Source of the DNA: a virus | Length of the DNA: 64,000 nucleotides | Virus record (IMG/VR): IMGVR_UViG_3300045412_000547 | Direction: 5' to 3' (one strand) | Part shown: positions 4,464-63,541 of the stretch, piece after piece | Layout: each line of letters starts with the position of its first letter | How positions within the stretch are numbered: the stretch's first letter is position 1 | Program-made: the position numbers and the translations under genes | The notes under the pieces: model-generated | Seen by the model: only the letters and a program-made list of their open reading frames with translations | Databases searched by the model: none | Told to the model about the DNA's origin: nothing

Positions 4464-4481
4464 TTTTTAATAAATATATGT

Positions 4482-27604: not shown

Positions 27605-29398
27605 ATGGCTGATTCCAATAGGGAAAGTACGTTTGGTCGGGACTTAATGAAGTTTATTTCGAATAAGCTTCCTTACAAAGAACTCTCTCTTGCTGATAAA
27701 ATTAACGATCTTAATCCCAAGTACAATCTATTTTTTGATAAAGGTACAAAGAAAAGCGAAGCTTTAGCAAGACAAAGTGTTTCATCATCTGTCTTATATA
27801 CAGATGACCTTGTAGCCAATGTCTTACAAAATAAAGATTATCACGAATTCATGTATGCAAACATACAACCGGATAAATCTCGCCGGTTAATGGATTATCG
27901 CGTTATGGCAGCTTTTTCAGAAGTTGCTAACGCTTTGGATGAAATATGTGATGAATTTATTAATAAGGATGATAATGGAGAAATAGTAAAGTTAAAATTT
28001 CGTGATGTAAATTTATCAGAAGACGTAAAGCAAGAAATTAAAAAAGAGTTTCAAAAATATATAGGTTATTTTGATTTAGAACATAACGGTTGGGAGTATG
28101 TAAGACAAATGCTCGTAGATGCAGAGATATATTTTGAACATATTATTCATAAAAAATTTCCCGAAGAAGGTGTTCTTGGCGTAATACAAATACCCTCCGA
28201 TCTAATTGATCCTATTTTTGGTAACGTACAAAACATGTTGATTAAGGGTTATCTTTTAAAGAAGCCTGTTTTTGATTTAAAGAATCCAACTAAGATTATT
28301 AAAACTGAATTTGTACCTATGGACGTTAATCAAGTAACGTACATTAATTCAGGCATATGGAATGAAAGCAAAACTGTTCGTCTTCCTTTTATAGAAAATG
28401 CGCGCCGAGCATATCGCCAGCTTAGCCTTATAGAAGATTCTATCGTTATTTATAGACTTGTCAGGGCTCCGGAGCGGTTAGTTTTTAATGTTGATGTAGG
28501 TAATATGCCCCCTCCAAAAGCAGAAGCTTACTTAAGAAAGCTTATGCAACAATATTGGAGTAAAAAAACTTTTGATGCTGATCAAGCAGCCACCGTTCAA
28601 AAATTTAACCCTCAATCAATGTTAGATAGTTTTTGGTTTGCTAAAAGAGCGGGCAGTGAAGGCACTACAGTTACGCCTTTACCTGGTGGCCAGAACCTTG
28701 GTGAACTTACAGATTTGATGTATTTTGTTCAAAAATTATACAAAGCTTTAAAAGTACCGGTTACGAGAATTAACCCAGAAGACACATACAAAGATGGCGC
28801 TGATATTCTTAGAGAAGAGTTAAAATTTGCTCGATTTATTATAAGGCTACAACAAACTTTTACATCAGGTTTCAAAAACGGCTTTATTACTCATTTAAAG
28901 CTTAAAAAACTTTGGGAAAAACATGAATTAAAAGAAACACATTTAGATTTATATTTTAATGTTCCAACTAACTTTTATGAGTTAAGGGAAAACCAAAAAT
29001 TTCAATTAAAAGCTGAAAACTTTAATGCTATCACTCAGAGTGAATTAGTATCTAAAACTTATGCTCAAAAGAAATACCTTGGTTGGTCTGAAACAGACAT
29101 TATGGCAAATAGAGAATTTTTACGCAAAGATAGAGAATTGCTTTGGGAGTTAGATCAGATTACACAAGGCGGTCCGGATTGGAGAGAGGGTGGGGTAGCT
29201 GCCGCGGGTGGTGGTCAACCATCTGAAGGTGGCGGTGCGTTAGGCGGCCCTAGCGGGTTACCACCGGCCCCTCCTGAATTTGGACCTGGCCCGGGACCTG
29301 AAGCTGGTGGCGCGCCTCCTGCAGGCGGTGCACCGACCCCTGGCGGAGCAGCTCCTGCCGGGGGGGCTGGAGGAGCAGGAGGGCCTACACCGGCTTAA
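27605..29398 (+). CDS. 20: Portal protein (T4 gp20) with Gly/Pro/Ala-rich C-terminal tail
   Basis: EDSIVIYRLVRAPERLVFNVDVGNMPPPKAEAYL, LPGGQNLGE, YKALKVP. Confidence 0.97.
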   Translation: MADSNRESTFGRDLMKFISNKLPYKELSLADKINDLNPKYNLFFDKGTKKSEALARQSVSSSVLYTDDLVANVLQNKDYHEFMYANIQPDKSRRLMDYRVMAAFSEVANALDEICDEFINKDDNGEIVKLKFRDVNLSEDVKQEIKKEFQKYIGYFDLEHNGWEYVRQMLVDAEIYFEHIIHKKFPEEGVLGVIQIPSDLIDPIFGNVQNMLIKGYLLKKPVFDLKNPTKIIKTEFVPMDVNQVTYINSGIWNESKTVRLPFIENARRAYRQLSLIEDSIVIYRLVRAPERLVFNVDVGNMPPPKAEAYLRKLMQQYWSKKTFDADQAATVQKFNPQSMLDSFWFAKRAGSEGTTVTPLPGGQNLGELTDLMYFVQKLYKALKVPVTRINPEDTYKDGADILREELKFARFIIRLQQTFTSGFKNGFITHLKLKKLWEKHELKETHLDLYFNVPTNFYELRENQKFQLKAENFNAITQSELVSKTYAQKKYLGWSETDIMANREFLRKDRELLWELDQITQGGPDWREGGVAAAGGGQPSEGGGALGGPSGLPPAPPEFGPGPGPEAGGAPPAGGAPTPGGAAPAGGAGGAGGPTPA

Positions 29399-31959: not shown

Positions 31960-32840
31960 GCAAATCTGTTACAGACATTCTTAAAGAAGCAACCAAAGAT
32001 ATTCTTTCTGAAGATATCTTAAAAGAAATCGAATTGGCTTTCAATACTACAGTTAATGATAAAGTAAAAATTCATGTTGAAAAAGCTCTCAATGAACAGG
32101 ATGAGGATTACGCAAAAAAATTAGAAAAGCTTGTTGATGTTATCGATGCTGACCATACAACTAAATTAAATCAAGTTGTCGAAGCAATAGATAAAAATCA
32201 TGCTAAAAAACTTCAAACGATTGTCGAAAAATACGAAAAGACAATTAAAGAGGAAGCGGTAGGTTTCAAAAATAATTTAGTTGAACAAGTAAGCAAATAT
32301 TTAGAAATTTACCTGGACGAGAAAATTCCTTCCGCTCAGATTCAAGATGCAGTAAACAATAAGAGAGCAACTAAAATGTTAAGCGAAATGCGTAATATGC
32401 TTTCTGTTAATGATGCTCTTGCAAAAGACAGCATTAAAGAAGCTGTTATAGATGGAAAGAATAGACTTGATGAAGCTGTTAAACAGCTTGAAGCCGCTGA
32501 TTCAAAAGTTAAGAAATTAAGTGAATCATTAAATAAAGCTGAAGCACAGCTTGTCTTAGAAAAGAAATTATCTTCATTAGATAGCGATAAAAAAGCTTAC
32601 ATGAAGAAAATGCTTTCTGGCAAGACGCCGCAGTTTATAAATGAAAATTTTGATTATACACTTAAGCTGTTTGAAAAAACTGAAGAAGAGCGGCTTGCAA
32701 ATCTTAAGGAAGAGGCAGTAACAGAGAGCGTAGCTCAAAAAGTAGATCGCCCTGTTATTGAAGAAAAAGCAAAGTCTAGTAATGATGAACTAAGAGACCC
32801 TGCTTTTGATCTCTATCTTAAAGAGCTCAATAAATATTAA
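31956..32840 (+). CDS. 22: Prohead scaffold protein (T4 gp22)
   Basis: Coiled-coil, acidic, directly upstream of the major capsid gene. Confidence 0.85.
   Translation: MSKSVTDILKEATKDILSEDILKEIELAFNTTVNDKVKIHVEKALNEQDEDYAKKLEKLVDVIDADHTTKLNQVVEAIDKNHAKKLQTIVEKYEKTIKEEAVGFKNNLVEQVSKYLEIYLDEKIPSAQIQDAVNNKRATKMLSEMRNMLSVNDALAKDSIKEAVIDGKNRLDEAVKQLEAADSKVKKLSESLNKAEAQLVLEKKLSSLDSDKKAYMKKMLSGKTPQFINENFDYTLKLFEKTEEERLANLKEEAVTESVAQKVDRPVIEEKAKSSNDELRDPAFDLYLKELNKY
32829..32836 (+). promoter_or_regulatory. T4-type late promoter for gp23
   Basis: AATAAATA within the last codons of gp22. Confidence 0.7.
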
Positions 32841-32912
32841 TTTTTAGAGCTTCTGAGGCATTTGCCTGAATAGAATCCCAAGGTCGACACATTAAGGAGA
32901 CTTAATATATAT

Positions 32913-34421
32913 ATGGCACAAATTCGTCCTTCACAGGCGTACATCGATGAGAATCGCGCAAAGGTATTGCTCGAAAAGTGGAGCCCAGTATTGGATTACA
33001 CTTCCGACAATGTCCGCGCAATCGAAGATGATCACACCCGCTTAAACACCGCTATTCTTTTGGAAAACCAAGAGAAGTGGTGCTTTGAAGCTTACGGTAC
33101 AAATAGTGGTAACATTGCTGGTGGTACGACAAGTGTTTTCGGTTCCGTCAATGCTGGCGGTACCGGTGGCGCTTTTCCCCCGAACAGTGACTCCTATGCC
33201 CCGGGTGATGCTCGCCTTCCTAAGATTCTTATTCCGATGATTCGTCGTACGTTCCCGGAATTGATCACTAACGAAATCGTTGGTGTTCAGCCGATGAGCG
33301 GCCCTGTTGGATTAGCTTTTGCCCTCAGATACAGATATGACGGTGATGCACTCGGTGCTACTAACGGTAAAGGTCTTGACGGCTCATTAGCCTCAGGCAC
33401 TACCGTGTGGCCGGGCGCTTCAGCCGGCGGTTCTGATGGAGCTGAATTAGGTTATCAGTACCTCGATACGAGATTTACTGGTACATCTTCTTCTGCTTTG
33501 GTTGGTGATTCAACTTTCTTCCCCTTCGTCCCTCAGGACCAAGGTGTTGCTCAGTTGCTCGCTAACTTTGAGTTAACCTCTAAGATTCCCCAGATTGTAG
33601 TTAGCTTCGAAAAGACAGCTGTTGAAGCTGGAACTCGTAGGCTCGCTGCTCGCTGGTCAGTTGAACTCGAGCAAGACTTGAAGAACATGAACGGTATTGA
33701 TATCGACACGGAACTCACTAACGCAATGTCGTATGAGTTACAGGCCGAAATCGACCGTGAAATGATAATCAGAATGATCCAGACTGCACTCAATGCCGGT
33801 TTCGGCACTGGGTTCTCGGTATGGTCACCCGCTTCGGCGGATGGTCGTTGGCTCGTAGAGCGCAACCGCGATTTCTATCAGAGGTTAATCATCGAGGCTA
33901 ACAGAATCGCTGTCCGTAACCGCCGTGGCGCGGCTAACTTCGTCGTTGCAACACCTCGTGTGTGTGCAATCCTCGAAATGTTACCCGAGTTCCAGTGGGC
34001 ACCGGTACAGGGAAATGTTAACACACAGCCCGTTGGTGTAGCAAAGGTTGGTTCACTTGGTGGCCGTTTCAACGTTTACCGTGATACGAGAACAGAAGCC
34101 CAATTCCAAGCCTACCCCGGAGGTAACTTCGGTGGTATCGGTGCTGGCGCCGCTGGTGGCACACGCTCCCAGCCGGTTGAATACGCGCTTCTCGGTTATA
34201 AGGGTCCGGAGTTTTATGACACCGGTATCATTTATTGCCCGTACATCCCGGTAATGGTGCAGCGCACAATTGGCCCGAACGACTTCTCTCCGAGAGTCGG
34301 GTTGCTTACTCGCTATGGCGTTGTAGACAACATCTTCGGTGCTAACTTGTACTATCACGTAATTATCTTACGTGGTTTAGGCACTGCATTTACACCTGGA
34401 ACACAATCCGTGTACTTCTAA
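32913..34421 (+). CDS. 23: Major capsid protein (T4 gp23)
   Basis: LLENQ, GVQPMSGPVGLAFALR, ELEQDLK, EIDRE, YCPYIP, TRYG. Confidence 0.98.
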   Translation: MAQIRPSQAYIDENRAKVLLEKWSPVLDYTSDNVRAIEDDHTRLNTAILLENQEKWCFEAYGTNSGNIAGGTTSVFGSVNAGGTGGAFPPNSDSYAPGDARLPKILIPMIRRTFPELITNEIVGVQPMSGPVGLAFALRYRYDGDALGATNGKGLDGSLASGTTVWPGASAGGSDGAELGYQYLDTRFTGTSSSALVGDSTFFPFVPQDQGVAQLLANFELTSKIPQIVVSFEKTAVEAGTRRLAARWSVELEQDLKNMNGIDIDTELTNAMSYELQAEIDREMIIRMIQTALNAGFGTGFSVWSPASADGRWLVERNRDFYQRLIIEANRIAVRNRRGAANFVVATPRVCAILEMLPEFQWAPVQGNVNTQPVGVAKVGSLGGRFNVYRDTRTEAQFQAYPGGNFGGIGAGAAGGTRSQPVEYALLGYKGPEFYDTGIIYCPYIPVMVQRTIGPNDFSPRVGLLTRYGVVDNIFGANLYYHVIILRGLGTAFTPGTQSVYF

Positions 34422-42257: not shown

Positions 42258-42473
42258 TTATTTTAATTTTCTACTACTTAACCAATTAGATCTATGGTTC
42301 ATTACCCAATCCATCAATGCTCTCTCAAAACCAACATCAAAACCTGCTTTTTCAGACATATACCATTTATTTTCTAATATACAATTTCTCTCTTCAAGAA
42401 ATCGTTGATATAATGCAGATGTTGAGTAGTTATATTCCATACAAATGTGCTGGCCAGACAAACACCTACTCAT
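42258..42473 (-). CDS. DUF4032-like small protein
   Basis: SALYQRFLEERNCILENKWYMSEKAGFDVGFERALMDW. Confidence 0.7.
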   Translation of the reverse strand: MSRCLSGQHICMEYNYSTSALYQRFLEERNCILENKWYMSEKAGFDVGFERALMDWVMNHRSNWLSSRKLK

Positions 42474-42491
42474 TTATATTATTTATTGATT

Positions 42492-42968
42492 TTATGGTCG
42501 ATAATGTATGTCGAGATCCCTTTCATTGACAGTATCATACACAGTATTAAATTTATCTGTAAAGGTAAATTTTCTTAACATAAAATTATTATAACTTATT
42601 TCACCGATAAGAAAAACAGTATAAGGATTTTTATCATAATCTACATACGCTAAAACAAATCGCTTTATATCTTCTGTTAGTGAGTTAAATTTACGTCTCA
42701 CTAATAATCTTTTTGGTGATTTAGTATACGTTGTTGTTTTAACTTGCGCTCCATTGATACCAAAATCAACTCCATCGTCTCCTTTATTGTTCCATACATC
42801 CCAATTTGGACTTACATTAATAAAAAGCCCGTAAGCAACTTCACCAAGGCGGCCAACTAAATGATTTTTAAAAGACCCAGTATTTTTATACACGTCCTTT
42901 TTTTCAACTAATAAGGCAAATTCTTTAGCTTTTTGAAATTGATCTTCAGAAAGAAGTATTTTTTTCAC
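42492..42968 (-). CDS. Putative PD-(D/E)xK nuclease-like protein
   Basis: GRLGEVAY...GDDGVDF...QVKTT pattern. Confidence 0.55.
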   Translation of the reverse strand: MKKILLSEDQFQKAKEFALLVEKKDVYKNTGSFKNHLVGRLGEVAYGLFINVSPNWDVWNNKGDDGVDFGINGAQVKTTTYTKSPKRLLVRRKFNSLTEDIKRFVLAYVDYDKNPYTVFLIGEISYNNFMLRKFTFTDKFNTVYDTVNERDLDIHYRP

Positions 42969-42986
42969 TATGAATATTTAAAAAAT

Positions 42987-43077
42987 AAAAAAAGCTTTTC
43001 AAGTATACCAGTAACCTTCGAAAAGATTCCCACCTACCCGCCCCTGGTATACGAATATACTACGTCGCCTTCAAAAG
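42987..43077 (-). ncRNA. Candidate structured small RNA / attenuator
   Basis: GC-rich intergenic stretch; 9-bp stem 43003-43011/43044-43052, two UUCG hairpins, G-tract, flanked by an AATAAATA promoter and a U-run. Confidence 0.55.
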
Positions 43078-43080
43078 TAT

Positions 43081-43311
43081 TTATTGGGACTCATATAACT
43101 TTTTTTGTAAGTTTAAAATAAATTCTTTTTTTTCTTCTTTTAGCTTATTTTTTAATTTTTCTAATTCGTAAAGCGTTACATCTACTCTTAAACTTTTTAA
43201 AAATTGCTCTTTAGGCTCTACGTTACAACCAGAAAATGAGTTTTCAAATATATAAAACAAAACTCCTATTTCTTCATCTGTACAATTTTTTAATACTTCG
43301 GAAGTTATCAC
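43081..43311 (-). CDS. Hypothetical protein
   Basis: 76-aa ORF coupled to the nrdB stop. Confidence 0.55.
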   Translation of the reverse strand: MITSEVLKNCTDEEIGVLFYIFENSFSGCNVEPKEQFLKSLRVDVTLYELEKLKNKLKEEKKEFILNLQKKLYESQ

Positions 43312-56820: not shown

Positions 56821-57522
56821 TTATGAAATATTAATAACTTTCATTGTTGTGTTGTTTAAAGGATTTATATAAAACATACCTACAAAATTAGACCAGTTTA
56901 AATTAGAAATATTTTTATTTAATGTTATAGGAGTATTGTATGTAATATTTGCTAATTGAATACTAGATGTAGATTGATTTGTATTTTTAAAAACACTGCA
57001 AATAGCTGATCTAAGAGAGTCTAAAACCAAGTTTACTTGAAAAGTATTTCCTGGTACTTTTGCTTCATTTTTAAAAGCATCGATATAAGTGTTTCTGTTA
57101 AAATCTAAATTTTGTGTTTGGTTTTGTTCAATTTCATAACCAACGCGGGGATGACCATTATTAACACTTAAGTTTTTCATAGGTAATAGGGGTACATTAC
57201 ATGATGCATTTGATTCAAAAATAGATACTGCATAAAAATTTTTATAAAAATAATAGTTTACACCGGACCCGTCGCAACCACCTATATTTTGATTTGGAGG
57301 ATAGACTAAAACATTATTATTTAAGCTATACTCAGAAAGCGGTTTAATAGTTTTAGATGTTTTATATATATATTCTGGGTATTGAAAAGCTACCATAAAA
57401 ATATCTTTAATTATATTCTCTGGTATATCTTGAGAAACATCAAAGGAAGCAGTAAGTACTCTTTCTAAAATAGCATTGTTTTCAATTTTTAAAATACCTT
57501 CTTTTGGTTGTAGGGTAATCAT
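56821..57522 (-). CDS. Putative virion structural protein
   Basis: Asn/Ser-rich, in an operon with the 1108-aa protein. Confidence 0.5.
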   Translation of the reverse strand: MITLQPKEGILKIENNAILERVLTASFDVSQDIPENIIKDIFMVAFQYPEYIYKTSKTIKPLSEYSLNNNVLVYPPNQNIGGCDGSGVNYYFYKNFYAVSIFESNASCNVPLLPMKNLSVNNGHPRVGYEIEQNQTQNLDFNRNTYIDAFKNEAKVPGNTFQVNLVLDSLRSAICSVFKNTNQSTSSIQLANITYNTPITLNKNISNLNWSNFVGMFYINPLNNTTMKVINIS

Positions 57523-63148: not shown

Positions 63149-63541
63149 TTAAAGACTTATTGCAAACCCCTCATAAGTAAAATTTTGTAAGATATCTTTT
63201 GTCATTCCTCGTTCTTTACAAAACTTTTTATAAATGACGTATTCGGATTTTTGATCTATGTTTAATTTAGATATATCCGGTCTGTGTCTAGGTTTATGAG
63301 CTTGTTCTATAGACCAATAACGTATTTCATGGGCATGCTCGTAATATGTATAGTTTAAATTCAACTTGATGCAACCATCTGGATTCCTGCCTGAAAAAAA
63401 CCCATCCCAATCCGCCATCGTGATATTATTAAAAATAACAAGCCCCGGAAACCATCCGCCCGGATTCCATCCGTTTGCATAACCTACCTCTACCAGATAT
63501 GGCTTAGTTGCACCGTAACGATAGTATTTAATATACCTCAT
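63149..63541 (-). CDS. Hypothetical protein
   Basis: 130-aa ORF coupled to the upstream gene. Confidence 0.5.
   Translation of the reverse strand: MRYIKYYRYGATKPYLVEVGYANGWNPGGWFPGLVIFNNITMADWDGFFSGRNPDGCIKLNLNYTYYEHAHEIRYWSIEQAHKPRHRPDISKLNIDQKSEYVIYKKFCKERGMTKDILQNFTYEGFAISL

Follow-up and report, generated by a model that had tools for sequence, protein, structure and literature searches.

A new family of phage structured RNAs whose invariant core looks like a G-quadruplex lacking one guanine

A G-quadruplex design that lacks one guanine has so far been known only from test-tube aptamers, and folds with a quadruplex-type G-tract core are known from selected aptamers (class V GTP, Spinach, and Mango). 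The class V GTP aptamer, which was selected in vitro, presents G-rich asymmetric internal bulges on a helical scaffold, depends on K+, and needs one more guanine to complete its quadruplex (PMC5066627). Quadruplexes with mutated tetrads also bind GTP (PMC5159562), and guanine-vacancy-bearing G-quadruplexes, as the citing paper presents them, occur in genomic DNA rather than RNA and have no flanking covarying helices (Li et al. 2015, as cited in PMC5066627). Spinach, Mango, and Corn are fluorogenic quadruplex aptamers (PMC5066627 and the title of PMC4923196). Orphan structured-RNA motifs from phages and metagenomes have been catalogued, one catalogue amounting to ten thousand candidates (PMC10690425), whose main text mentions neither quadruplexes nor G-rich motifs nor nrd.

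Here we describe an RNA element found in a 64,000-nt stretch of the uncultured virus record IMGVR_UViG_3300045412_000547 (hereafter the window), where it lies on the minus strand in the 112-nt gap between a 76-aa open reading frame (ORF) and a 158-aa ORF. Like the class V GTP aptamer, the element is a G-rich segment on a helical scaffold, with a quadruplex that is predicted to be short of a guanine. The aptamer, however, is synthetic, has two layers, and draws its guanines from two bulges on both strands, whereas the guanines of the element all lie in one 5′-side loop between two helices; the likeness is one of design. With the vacancy-bearing quadruplexes, as these are summarized by the citing paper, the element shares an arrangement of three GGG tracts and one GG tract with very short linkers between them; unlike those genomic-DNA quadruplexes, its tract is set inside a conserved phage RNA fold. 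Spinach, Mango, and Corn place a quadruplex at a junction with A-form helices, as is predicted for the element, but they are laboratory-made, dye-binding molecules with other G-tract arrangements, and none is a natural family. Like the motifs of the catalogue, the element comes from comparative analysis of uncultured phage contigs. To our knowledge, no Rfam family has a quadruplex-type G-tract set as an invariant core within two covarying helices, and a survey of the literature returned no description of a natural quadruplex RNA motif or riboswitch of this type in phages.

A different kind of likeness is offered by the 5′ mRNA stabilizers of the Bacillus phage SP82 leader and of cryIIIA (STAB-SD), in which a non-initiating polypurine resembling a Shine-Dalgarno (SD) sequence stands at the extreme 5′ end with a stable structure adjoining. 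These stabilizers belong to Firmicutes, act with RNase J, and have no G-tract loop. Judged from sequence alone, the element resembles them in carrying a purine SD-like word at its probable 5′ end with no start codon at initiation distance, and it differs from them in having the G-tract loop.

The family was first recognized by eye, in the DNA 3′ of nrdB. A search with NrdB returned many IMG/VR contigs at 80 to 91% protein identity, about one third of which have the element 3′ of nrdB; a degenerate sequence pattern run over IMG/VR then added many copies, and a covariance model was built from 25 members of the long class. There are 51 distinct copies, all in AT-rich uncultured phage contigs. In the window the covariance model finds a single copy at 75 bits, with the runner-up at 13 bits; elsewhere it gives 50 matches in pattern-derived loci, 29 in loci picked solely via the downstream small protein, and 11 (E below 0.01) in loci picked solely via NrdB. 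A blastn-short search with the whole element recovered two relatives and no more. The exact 16-mer of the G tract was discarded as a probe, its ten matches in IMG/VR all being chance occurrences in GC-rich contigs.

No copy occurs in more distant NrdB loci (40 to 65% identity) or upstream of bacterial DUF4032-like genes in 80 Verrucomicrobiota loci. A first scan of bacterial genomes produced GC-rich noise, with no true copy among the 120 matches listed, and a TAAATA-anchored pattern, run to completion over some 185,000 species genomes of bacteria and archaea, gave 29 matches, none with the rest of the motif. Among cultured phages there is neither a DNA relative of the window nor a match for the 158-aa neighbor, and a tRNA/tmRNA scan of the window found no such gene. 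A preliminary description of this DNA, made from the letters of the window, had proposed an Infernal/Rfam search as one check, and the element does fall outside Rfam: no family in Rfam 15 reaches its gathering threshold anywhere in the window, and at E values up to 10 the interval 42900-43150 yields only a pair of chance matches, both to the opposite strand and scoring 13 to 14 bits against thresholds of 41 to 76. On this comparative evidence, the element is a new, previously uncatalogued family of phage structured RNAs, and its carriers are a clade of uncultured AT-rich T4-like phages.

The copies share one plan, which runs from TAA(A/G)TA through GAAGGNG, a spacer of 0 to 20 nt, helix P1, the G loop, helix P2, and a bulged A to the return strand of P1 (Table 1). 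Across the family P1 has 8 to 11 bp and P2 has 4 to 7 bp with a free loop; the bulged A is present in every parsed copy of all subclasses except class C, which lacks it. In the window the gene order is nrdA, nrdB, the 76-aa ORF, the element, the 158-aa ORF, and a DUF4032-like gene, with a gene of the GMP-reductase/IMPDH family further downstream. On the minus strand, 3′ of P2, ACUGGUAUAC pairs with GUAUACCAG and is followed by UUGAAAAG and then by the U run. Every segment quoted in the preliminary description is found on the minus strand where it had been placed, and this holds for the two hairpins, the stem of 9 bp, the G tract, and the U run alike.

Table 1. Features of the element and its neighbors in the window
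Feature	Position	Strand	Remark
AATAAATA, late-promoter-like	43078..43085	-	overlaps TAA stop codon of the 76-aa ORF; promoter role inferred
CUUUUGAAGGCGACGUA	43077-43061	-	read directly in window sequence
GAAGGCG heptamer (family consensus GAAGGNG), purine-rich, single-stranded	43066..43072	-	probable RNA 5′ end
P0, weak optional hairpin GUAUA(UUCG)UAUAC	43047..43060	-	3′ arm falls within the P1 5′ arm
P1 5′ arm GUAUACCAG	43044..43052	-	covariation
G tract GGGGCGGGUAGGUGGG	43044-43029	-	read directly in window sequence
G-tract loop GGG-C-GGG-UA-GG-U-GGG	43029..43043	-	predicted quadruplex one guanine short, or two-layer quadruplex
P2 hairpin AAUCUU(UUCG)AAGGUU	43013..43028	-	covariation
Bulged A, between P2 and P1 3′ arm	43012	-	subclass comparison
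P1 3′ arm CUGGUAUAC	43003..43011	-	covariation
U run CUUUUUUU	42987..42994	-	particular to the window phage; outside the family
Second late-promoter-like TAAATA	42975..42980	-	6 nt 5′ of GTG start of the 158-aa gene
158-aa gene, family not assigned	42492..42968	-	inserted between element and DUF4032-like small gene
DUF4032-like 71-aa gene	42258..42473	-	commonest downstream partner of the element
76-aa ORF directly after nrdB	43081..43311	-	commonest upstream neighbor of the element

The fold is robustly supported by covariation. Across 45 distinct aligned sequences, in an alignment fitted to the covariance model and among loci related by descent, whose counts are not independent events, canonical pairs fill 98.5% of cells, double changes occur at 11 of the 14 pairs, and compensatory cells number 172 against 48 +/- 5 in shuffles. 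Sliding the partners by 1 to 3 columns, as a control, leaves only 29 to 43% paired. P1 is 98.6% paired, with double changes at 5 of its 8 pairs; P2 is 98.5% paired and has double compensatory changes at all six, and its loop varies in both sequence and length. An alignment of the long class by itself, made with MAFFT only, agrees with this (98.8% paired). The preliminary description had presented the locus as an unannotated structured RNA and had named a lack of conservation or covariation in related phages among the results that would refute it; homologues were collected from such phages, P1 and P2 covary strongly in them, and the proposal passes this test. The fold of the window copy taken by itself is unexceptional (minimum free energy of −21.7 kcal/mol; z = −1.0 against shuffles), and we therefore take the element to be beyond chance because of its conservation in relatives, not because of its fold energy. 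Neither strand shows the conserved open frame of a protein-coding sequence: relatives disagree in both the frame and the length of the tiny ORFs that follow GAAGGAG, P2 loop lengths differ by non-multiples of 3, and an ORF on the opposite strand overlaps only 6 of 42 copies.

Covariation also bears on whether the element acts as RNA at all. A promoter followed by G clusters favors R-loops, and the element might accordingly be read as a DNA-level feature, either a transcription-primed (R-loop) replication origin or a site for protein binding or recombination, in which the G-rich non-template strand rather than an RNA would matter. The promoter-like motif does precede the G clusters, and the locus is a hot spot for the insertion of different genes. 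Compensatory changes in two helices nevertheless speak for a single strand that folds; copies do not differ in strand or in their fixed spacing to the promoter-like motif; they share no conserved AT-rich tract for unwinding; and 7-deazaguanine in the phage DNA, which the gene set suggests, would preclude DNA quadruplexes if the DNA is so modified. We consider this reading very unlikely.

The G tract, which the preliminary description had singled out as very unusual in AT-rich DNA, turned out to be the most conserved part of the family. The loop reads GGG-N-GGG-N(1-3)-GG-N-GGG and is 14 to 16 nt long, and all eleven guanines are invariant in the 51 distinct copies. The first and third linkers are U, C, or A; the second, of 1 to 3 nt, is UU, A, AC, U, UA, AU, or AAU; and no linker contains a G in any copy. 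The third tract is exactly GG in 51 of 51 copies, and the pattern used on IMG/VR would have permitted a full GGG there, of which the AT-rich copies contain no instance. Measured against the canonical three-tetrad pattern (four tracts of at least 3 G, loops of 1 to 7 nt), the loops of 1, 1 to 3, and 1 nt fit and the tracts do not; the copies have instead the three GGG tracts, single GG tract, and short variable loops of a two-layer or guanine-vacancy quadruplex. ViennaRNA with its quadruplex term puts the minimum at P1 plus a two-layer G-quadruplex (G4) plus P2 in nearly all copies, and without that term finds no consistent pairing for the loop. Invariant tracts joined by free and very short linkers are the signature of a quadruplex and agree with the prediction for a parallel one; a base-pairing seed does not predict them, nor would we expect a sequence-specific protein site to show them. 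The invariant core therefore looks like a G-quadruplex lacking one guanine, a 3-3-2-3 “vacancy.” The c-MYC-type parallel quadruplex has 1:2:1 loops, and the tract of the window is one guanine short of a three-tetrad quadruplex of that 1:2:1 form, a two-layer fold being also possible. A natural family of 51 members is an object for asking whether RNA quadruplexes fold and work in bacteria, and whether a guanine vacancy can serve as a ligand site.

Short-loop G4-like words number twelve in the window, against about 1.9 in block shuffles, and of these the tract of the element is the one tight 3-3-2-3 example that falls between genes. The other eleven, two-layer words all lie at positions within long ORFs (by overlap of position, frames aside), at 29168, 29360, 50115, 50567, 56787, and 62497 on the plus strand and at 63416, 55307, 41767, 29274, and 15506 on the minus strand.

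A vacancy of this kind raises the question of a ligand. A free guanine compound (GTP, GMP, or guanine) could fill the third tract, complete the quadruplex, and lock P1, so that binding would alter termination or access to the 5′ end; a phage that rewrites the guanines of its DNA as formyl-preQ1 could in this way read the guanine/deazaguanine pool late in infection. The 7-deazaguanines themselves could not fill the vacancy because they lack N7. Such a riboswitch-like sensor would agree with the strict 3-3-2-3 arrangement and with linkers that are never G, with the covariation-supported conserved fold expected of an aptamer, and with the precedents of the class V GTP aptamer, the vacancy-bearing quadruplexes as summarized alongside it (PMC5066627), and the GTP-binding tetrad mutants (PMC5159562). 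The window also encodes QueF, a formyltransferase-domain protein, and a DpdA3-like gene 5 to 8 kb away from the element, together with a GMP-reductase-family gene 1 kb downstream, and a DpdA3 homologue occurs in 5 of 5 large contigs that carry the element. Since DpdA3 is found in 1 of 4 relatives without the element too, however, its co-occurrence is confounded by shared ancestry, and the association, which is the only circumstantial link to a possible sensing of DNA modification or guanine nucleotides, is suggestive at best; small fragments are uninformative in this respect, the contigs being only 9 to 19% complete. The sensor would also have to explain why the genes downstream have no evident link to guanine metabolism and why no clearly conserved expression platform appears (the hairpin P0 competes with P1 in the long class only, the U tract is variable, and the heptamer is generally unsequestered). 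The conservation is explained as well by a quadruplex of two layers or by a purine fold of another kind. We regard a sensor as unlikely. If this reading is true, the element would be the first natural riboswitch-type RNA with a hole in a G-tetrad as its ligand pocket.

What precedes the fold is as regular as the fold itself. Of the 51 distinct copies, 44 have TAA(A/G)TA 5 to 7 nt before GAAGG, a count made up of 37 copies scored directly at 5 to 7 nt and 7 scored at 1 nt, in which an overlapping TAAGTA is read as lying at 5 nt; in the window, AATAAATA lies 5 nt upstream of GAAGG. The arrangement fits a T4-type late unit, in which a TATAAATA-like −10 element would stand about 6 nt upstream of the start site. 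TAAATA or TAAGTA also stands 5 to 6 nt before the start codon in 18 of the 69 ORFs of the window, and an SD-like word is present at only 7 of the 69 genes. Taken together, these two counts suggest that the late mRNAs of the window phage are probably leaderless. Because the spacing of the motif to GAAGGNG equals its spacing to the start codon in the genes of the window, we infer that GAAGGNG is the 5′ end of the RNA; because so few of those genes have an SD-like word, GAAGGNG is not a routine ribosome site. The heptamer is GAAGGAG in 41, GAAGGCG in 6, and GAAGGUG in 4 of the 51 copies, and it pairs with downstream sequence no better than background (mean of −3.5 versus −4.3 kcal/mol), apart from a few lineage-specific exceptions. 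Such exceptions are seen in L354:47-140 (+), L104, L124, and L144, where a downstream CUGCUCCUU or UUCCUUU matches the heptamer and would sequester it and extend P1.

ATAAATA stands 5 to 6 nt before the start codons of many genes in the window, for example at 4470, 27593, 30951, 34536, and 53741 on the plus strand and at 56824, 51232, 42486, and 7531 on the minus strand. An exception to the leaderless arrangement is the 502-aa gene at 32913 (window 32830-32915, plus strand), where ATAAATA is followed by a 76-nt leader containing TAAGGAG; this may be a second structured or SD-using leader before a highly expressed late gene.

The reading that we prefer, and in which we place about even confidence, is that the element is an RNA made from a late promoter, with a quadruplex-type core that would clamp P1, and that, heading a cassette of late genes, it acts in cis. 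Transcription would start at GAAGGNG, 5 to 7 nt past a T4-type late promoter. The G tracts would form a parallel quadruplex (loops of 1 / 1-3 / 1 nt) at the junction of P1 and P2, one guanine short of three tetrads, and this quadruplex would clamp P1 shut; a single A lies opposite the loop. The module would then act as a 5′ leader in the stability or read-through of late transcripts or in the translation of the small genes that follow, and not as a plain terminator; an exposed SD-like purine heptamer beside a very stable fold would resemble the 5′ mRNA stabilizers. Even with so modest a function as that of a transcript-stabilizing leader, the element would be a clean new entry for RNA family databases.

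The position of the element is consistent with a leader. It is always on the coding strand, co-directional with its neighbors, and heads one or more late-type genes, and in most copies a gene starts within about 60 nt of it. In class B the 3′ arm of P1 overlaps the TAAATA of the next gene, whose start codon is 5 to 11 nt away. The idea of a split SD, in which P1 would bring GAAGGAG beside the start codon, was set aside: its spacing fits class B only, the start codon of class A lying 26 to 40 nt from P1.

A second possibility is that the element is a free-standing late small non-coding RNA of about 70 to 95 nt that acts in trans and is not the leader of the next gene; it might sequester a host or phage protein, for instance, or dock on the ribosome via its SD-like 5′ end. 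Most long-class copies have another TAAATA, with a start codon, within about 25 nt of the modeled 3′ end of the element (further away in L343), so that the element looks like a separate unit; the next gene may therefore not need a leader, and on this point a free-standing small RNA fits equally well. Such an RNA would also have its own promoter-like motif at a fixed distance, unrelated genes follow the element in different phages, and U richness past P1 is enriched: at least 5 of the next 8 nt are U in 37% of copies versus 16% of background, and at least 6 of 8 in 20% versus 4.5%. That enrichment is absent in the short classes, and no terminator is conserved; classes B and D lack one, having A-rich or coding sequence after P1, and the class B element runs straight into the next gene. 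The orientation and the site just upstream of a gene, moreover, are invariant, which would be needless for a gene acting in trans. We rate a trans-acting RNA as the main rival reading, possible but improbable. The preliminary description had offered a late small RNA or a switch/attenuator. Its first half, widened to a late small RNA or leader, is reasonable with AATAAATA at the late-promoter position; a two-state switch is not a defining feature of the family, because P0 is weak and confined to the long subclass.

P0 is the alternative first hairpin on which a switch would have turned. Within the long subclass it is found again, its arms co-varying (UGUAC/GUACA, UGUAU/AUACA, GCAU/AUGC, and GUAUA/UAUAC), and its 3′ arm there always overlaps the 5′ arm of P1, as had been proposed for the window, where the 9-bp stem GUAUACCAG/CUGGUAUAC is present and overlaps the 3′ arm of the first hairpin. 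Its energies, however, are only −0.3 to −2.7 kcal/mol, with a mean z of −0.6; some copies do not fold P0, imposing it in the window costs about 5 to 7 kcal/mol, and it is missing from the short classes, in which an 11-bp P1 abuts the heptamer. The mutual overlap with P1 thus survives as a trait of one subclass, and P0 as a stable alternative fold was rejected on its weak energies, modest z-scores, and cost. Neither UUCG loop is conserved in the family. Two parts that the preliminary description had counted with the element, the outer helix CUUUUGAA/UUGAAAAG and the U run, are particular to the window phage; that helix is imperfect, with one G.G mismatch, lies partly upstream of the probable RNA start, and is not retained in the closest relatives.

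The lack of conservation of these parts weighs on the view that the locus is a plain intrinsic terminator of the nrdA-nrdB-ORF76 operon, made of a long hairpin and a U run. The whole window element can close as a long interrupted hairpin followed by U7, in each of the four context classes with a visible nrdB the element closes off the nrd genes, and there is the U enrichment after P1 given above. A terminator scan, however, finds nothing at the site, the “loop” of P1 is about 45 nt, and a U tract follows in only a minority of copies. The 45-nt structured insert, its eleven invariant guanines, and the invariant 5′ heptamer would all be needless for termination, the U run and outer helix are not conserved even in the closest relatives, and the sequence after P1 in classes B and D is of the wrong kind. 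A plain terminator is accordingly very unlikely. The constant position downstream of nrdB nonetheless makes a role at the 3′ end of the nrd operon possible.

Wherever nrdB is seen, the element lies about 0.3 to 1.3 kb downstream of it. The upstream neighbor is the 76-aa ORF after nrdB in 29 of 42 copies and a membrane protein of about 410 aa in the other 13. The 76-aa ORF encodes an acidic protein with the motif L(S/T)(E/D)EE..., conserved in many relatives and without a match to any Pfam or PHROG family. Downstream, 10 of the 11 loci chosen via NrdB have a DUF4032-like gene, either next to the element or with a single inserted gene in between, and of 80 phage loci chosen via the DUF4032-like protein alone, 28 have the element upstream of the gene for this small protein. 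Other lineages have an Hsp20-like or a metallophosphoesterase gene after the element. The downstream genes (DUF4032-like, the 158-aa gene, Hsp20-like, and metallophosphoesterase) thus share no single metabolic theme of the sort that marks riboswitches, and this heterogeneity argues against one dedicated regulatory target.

The DUF4032-like phage protein is 55 to 67% identical to a protein in more than 590 Verrucomicrobiota genomes. These homologues point to the host phylum, and the host of the phage is probably a member of Verrucomicrobiota. The bacterial homologue usually lies just downstream of apbC/mrp, which encodes an Fe-S carrier ATPase of NUBPL type, and the DUF4032-like protein possibly has an Fe-S-related role. 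It has no match in PHROGs and no significant sequence match in the PDB; its AF2 model consists of four helices (pLDDT 83) with no fold match in the PDB, and a literature search found no mention of DUF4032. The element marks late transcription units in poorly known T4-like phages, probably of Verrucomicrobiota, whose DNA seems to have its guanine replaced and whose late mRNAs seem to be leaderless.

Two departures from the usual neighborhood deserve a record. A distant subclass (L103, L120, L156, L176, L095, and L163) places a 190-aa gene between nrdB and the element and has an Hsp20-like small heat-shock gene next, and its copies have a weak P2 and no bulged A. In L293-L295 and L299, an apparent tRNA gene 3′ end (ggttcaaatcccagcacctcca) takes the place of the element before the DUF4032-like gene, about 40 to 110 nt upstream of position 1501.
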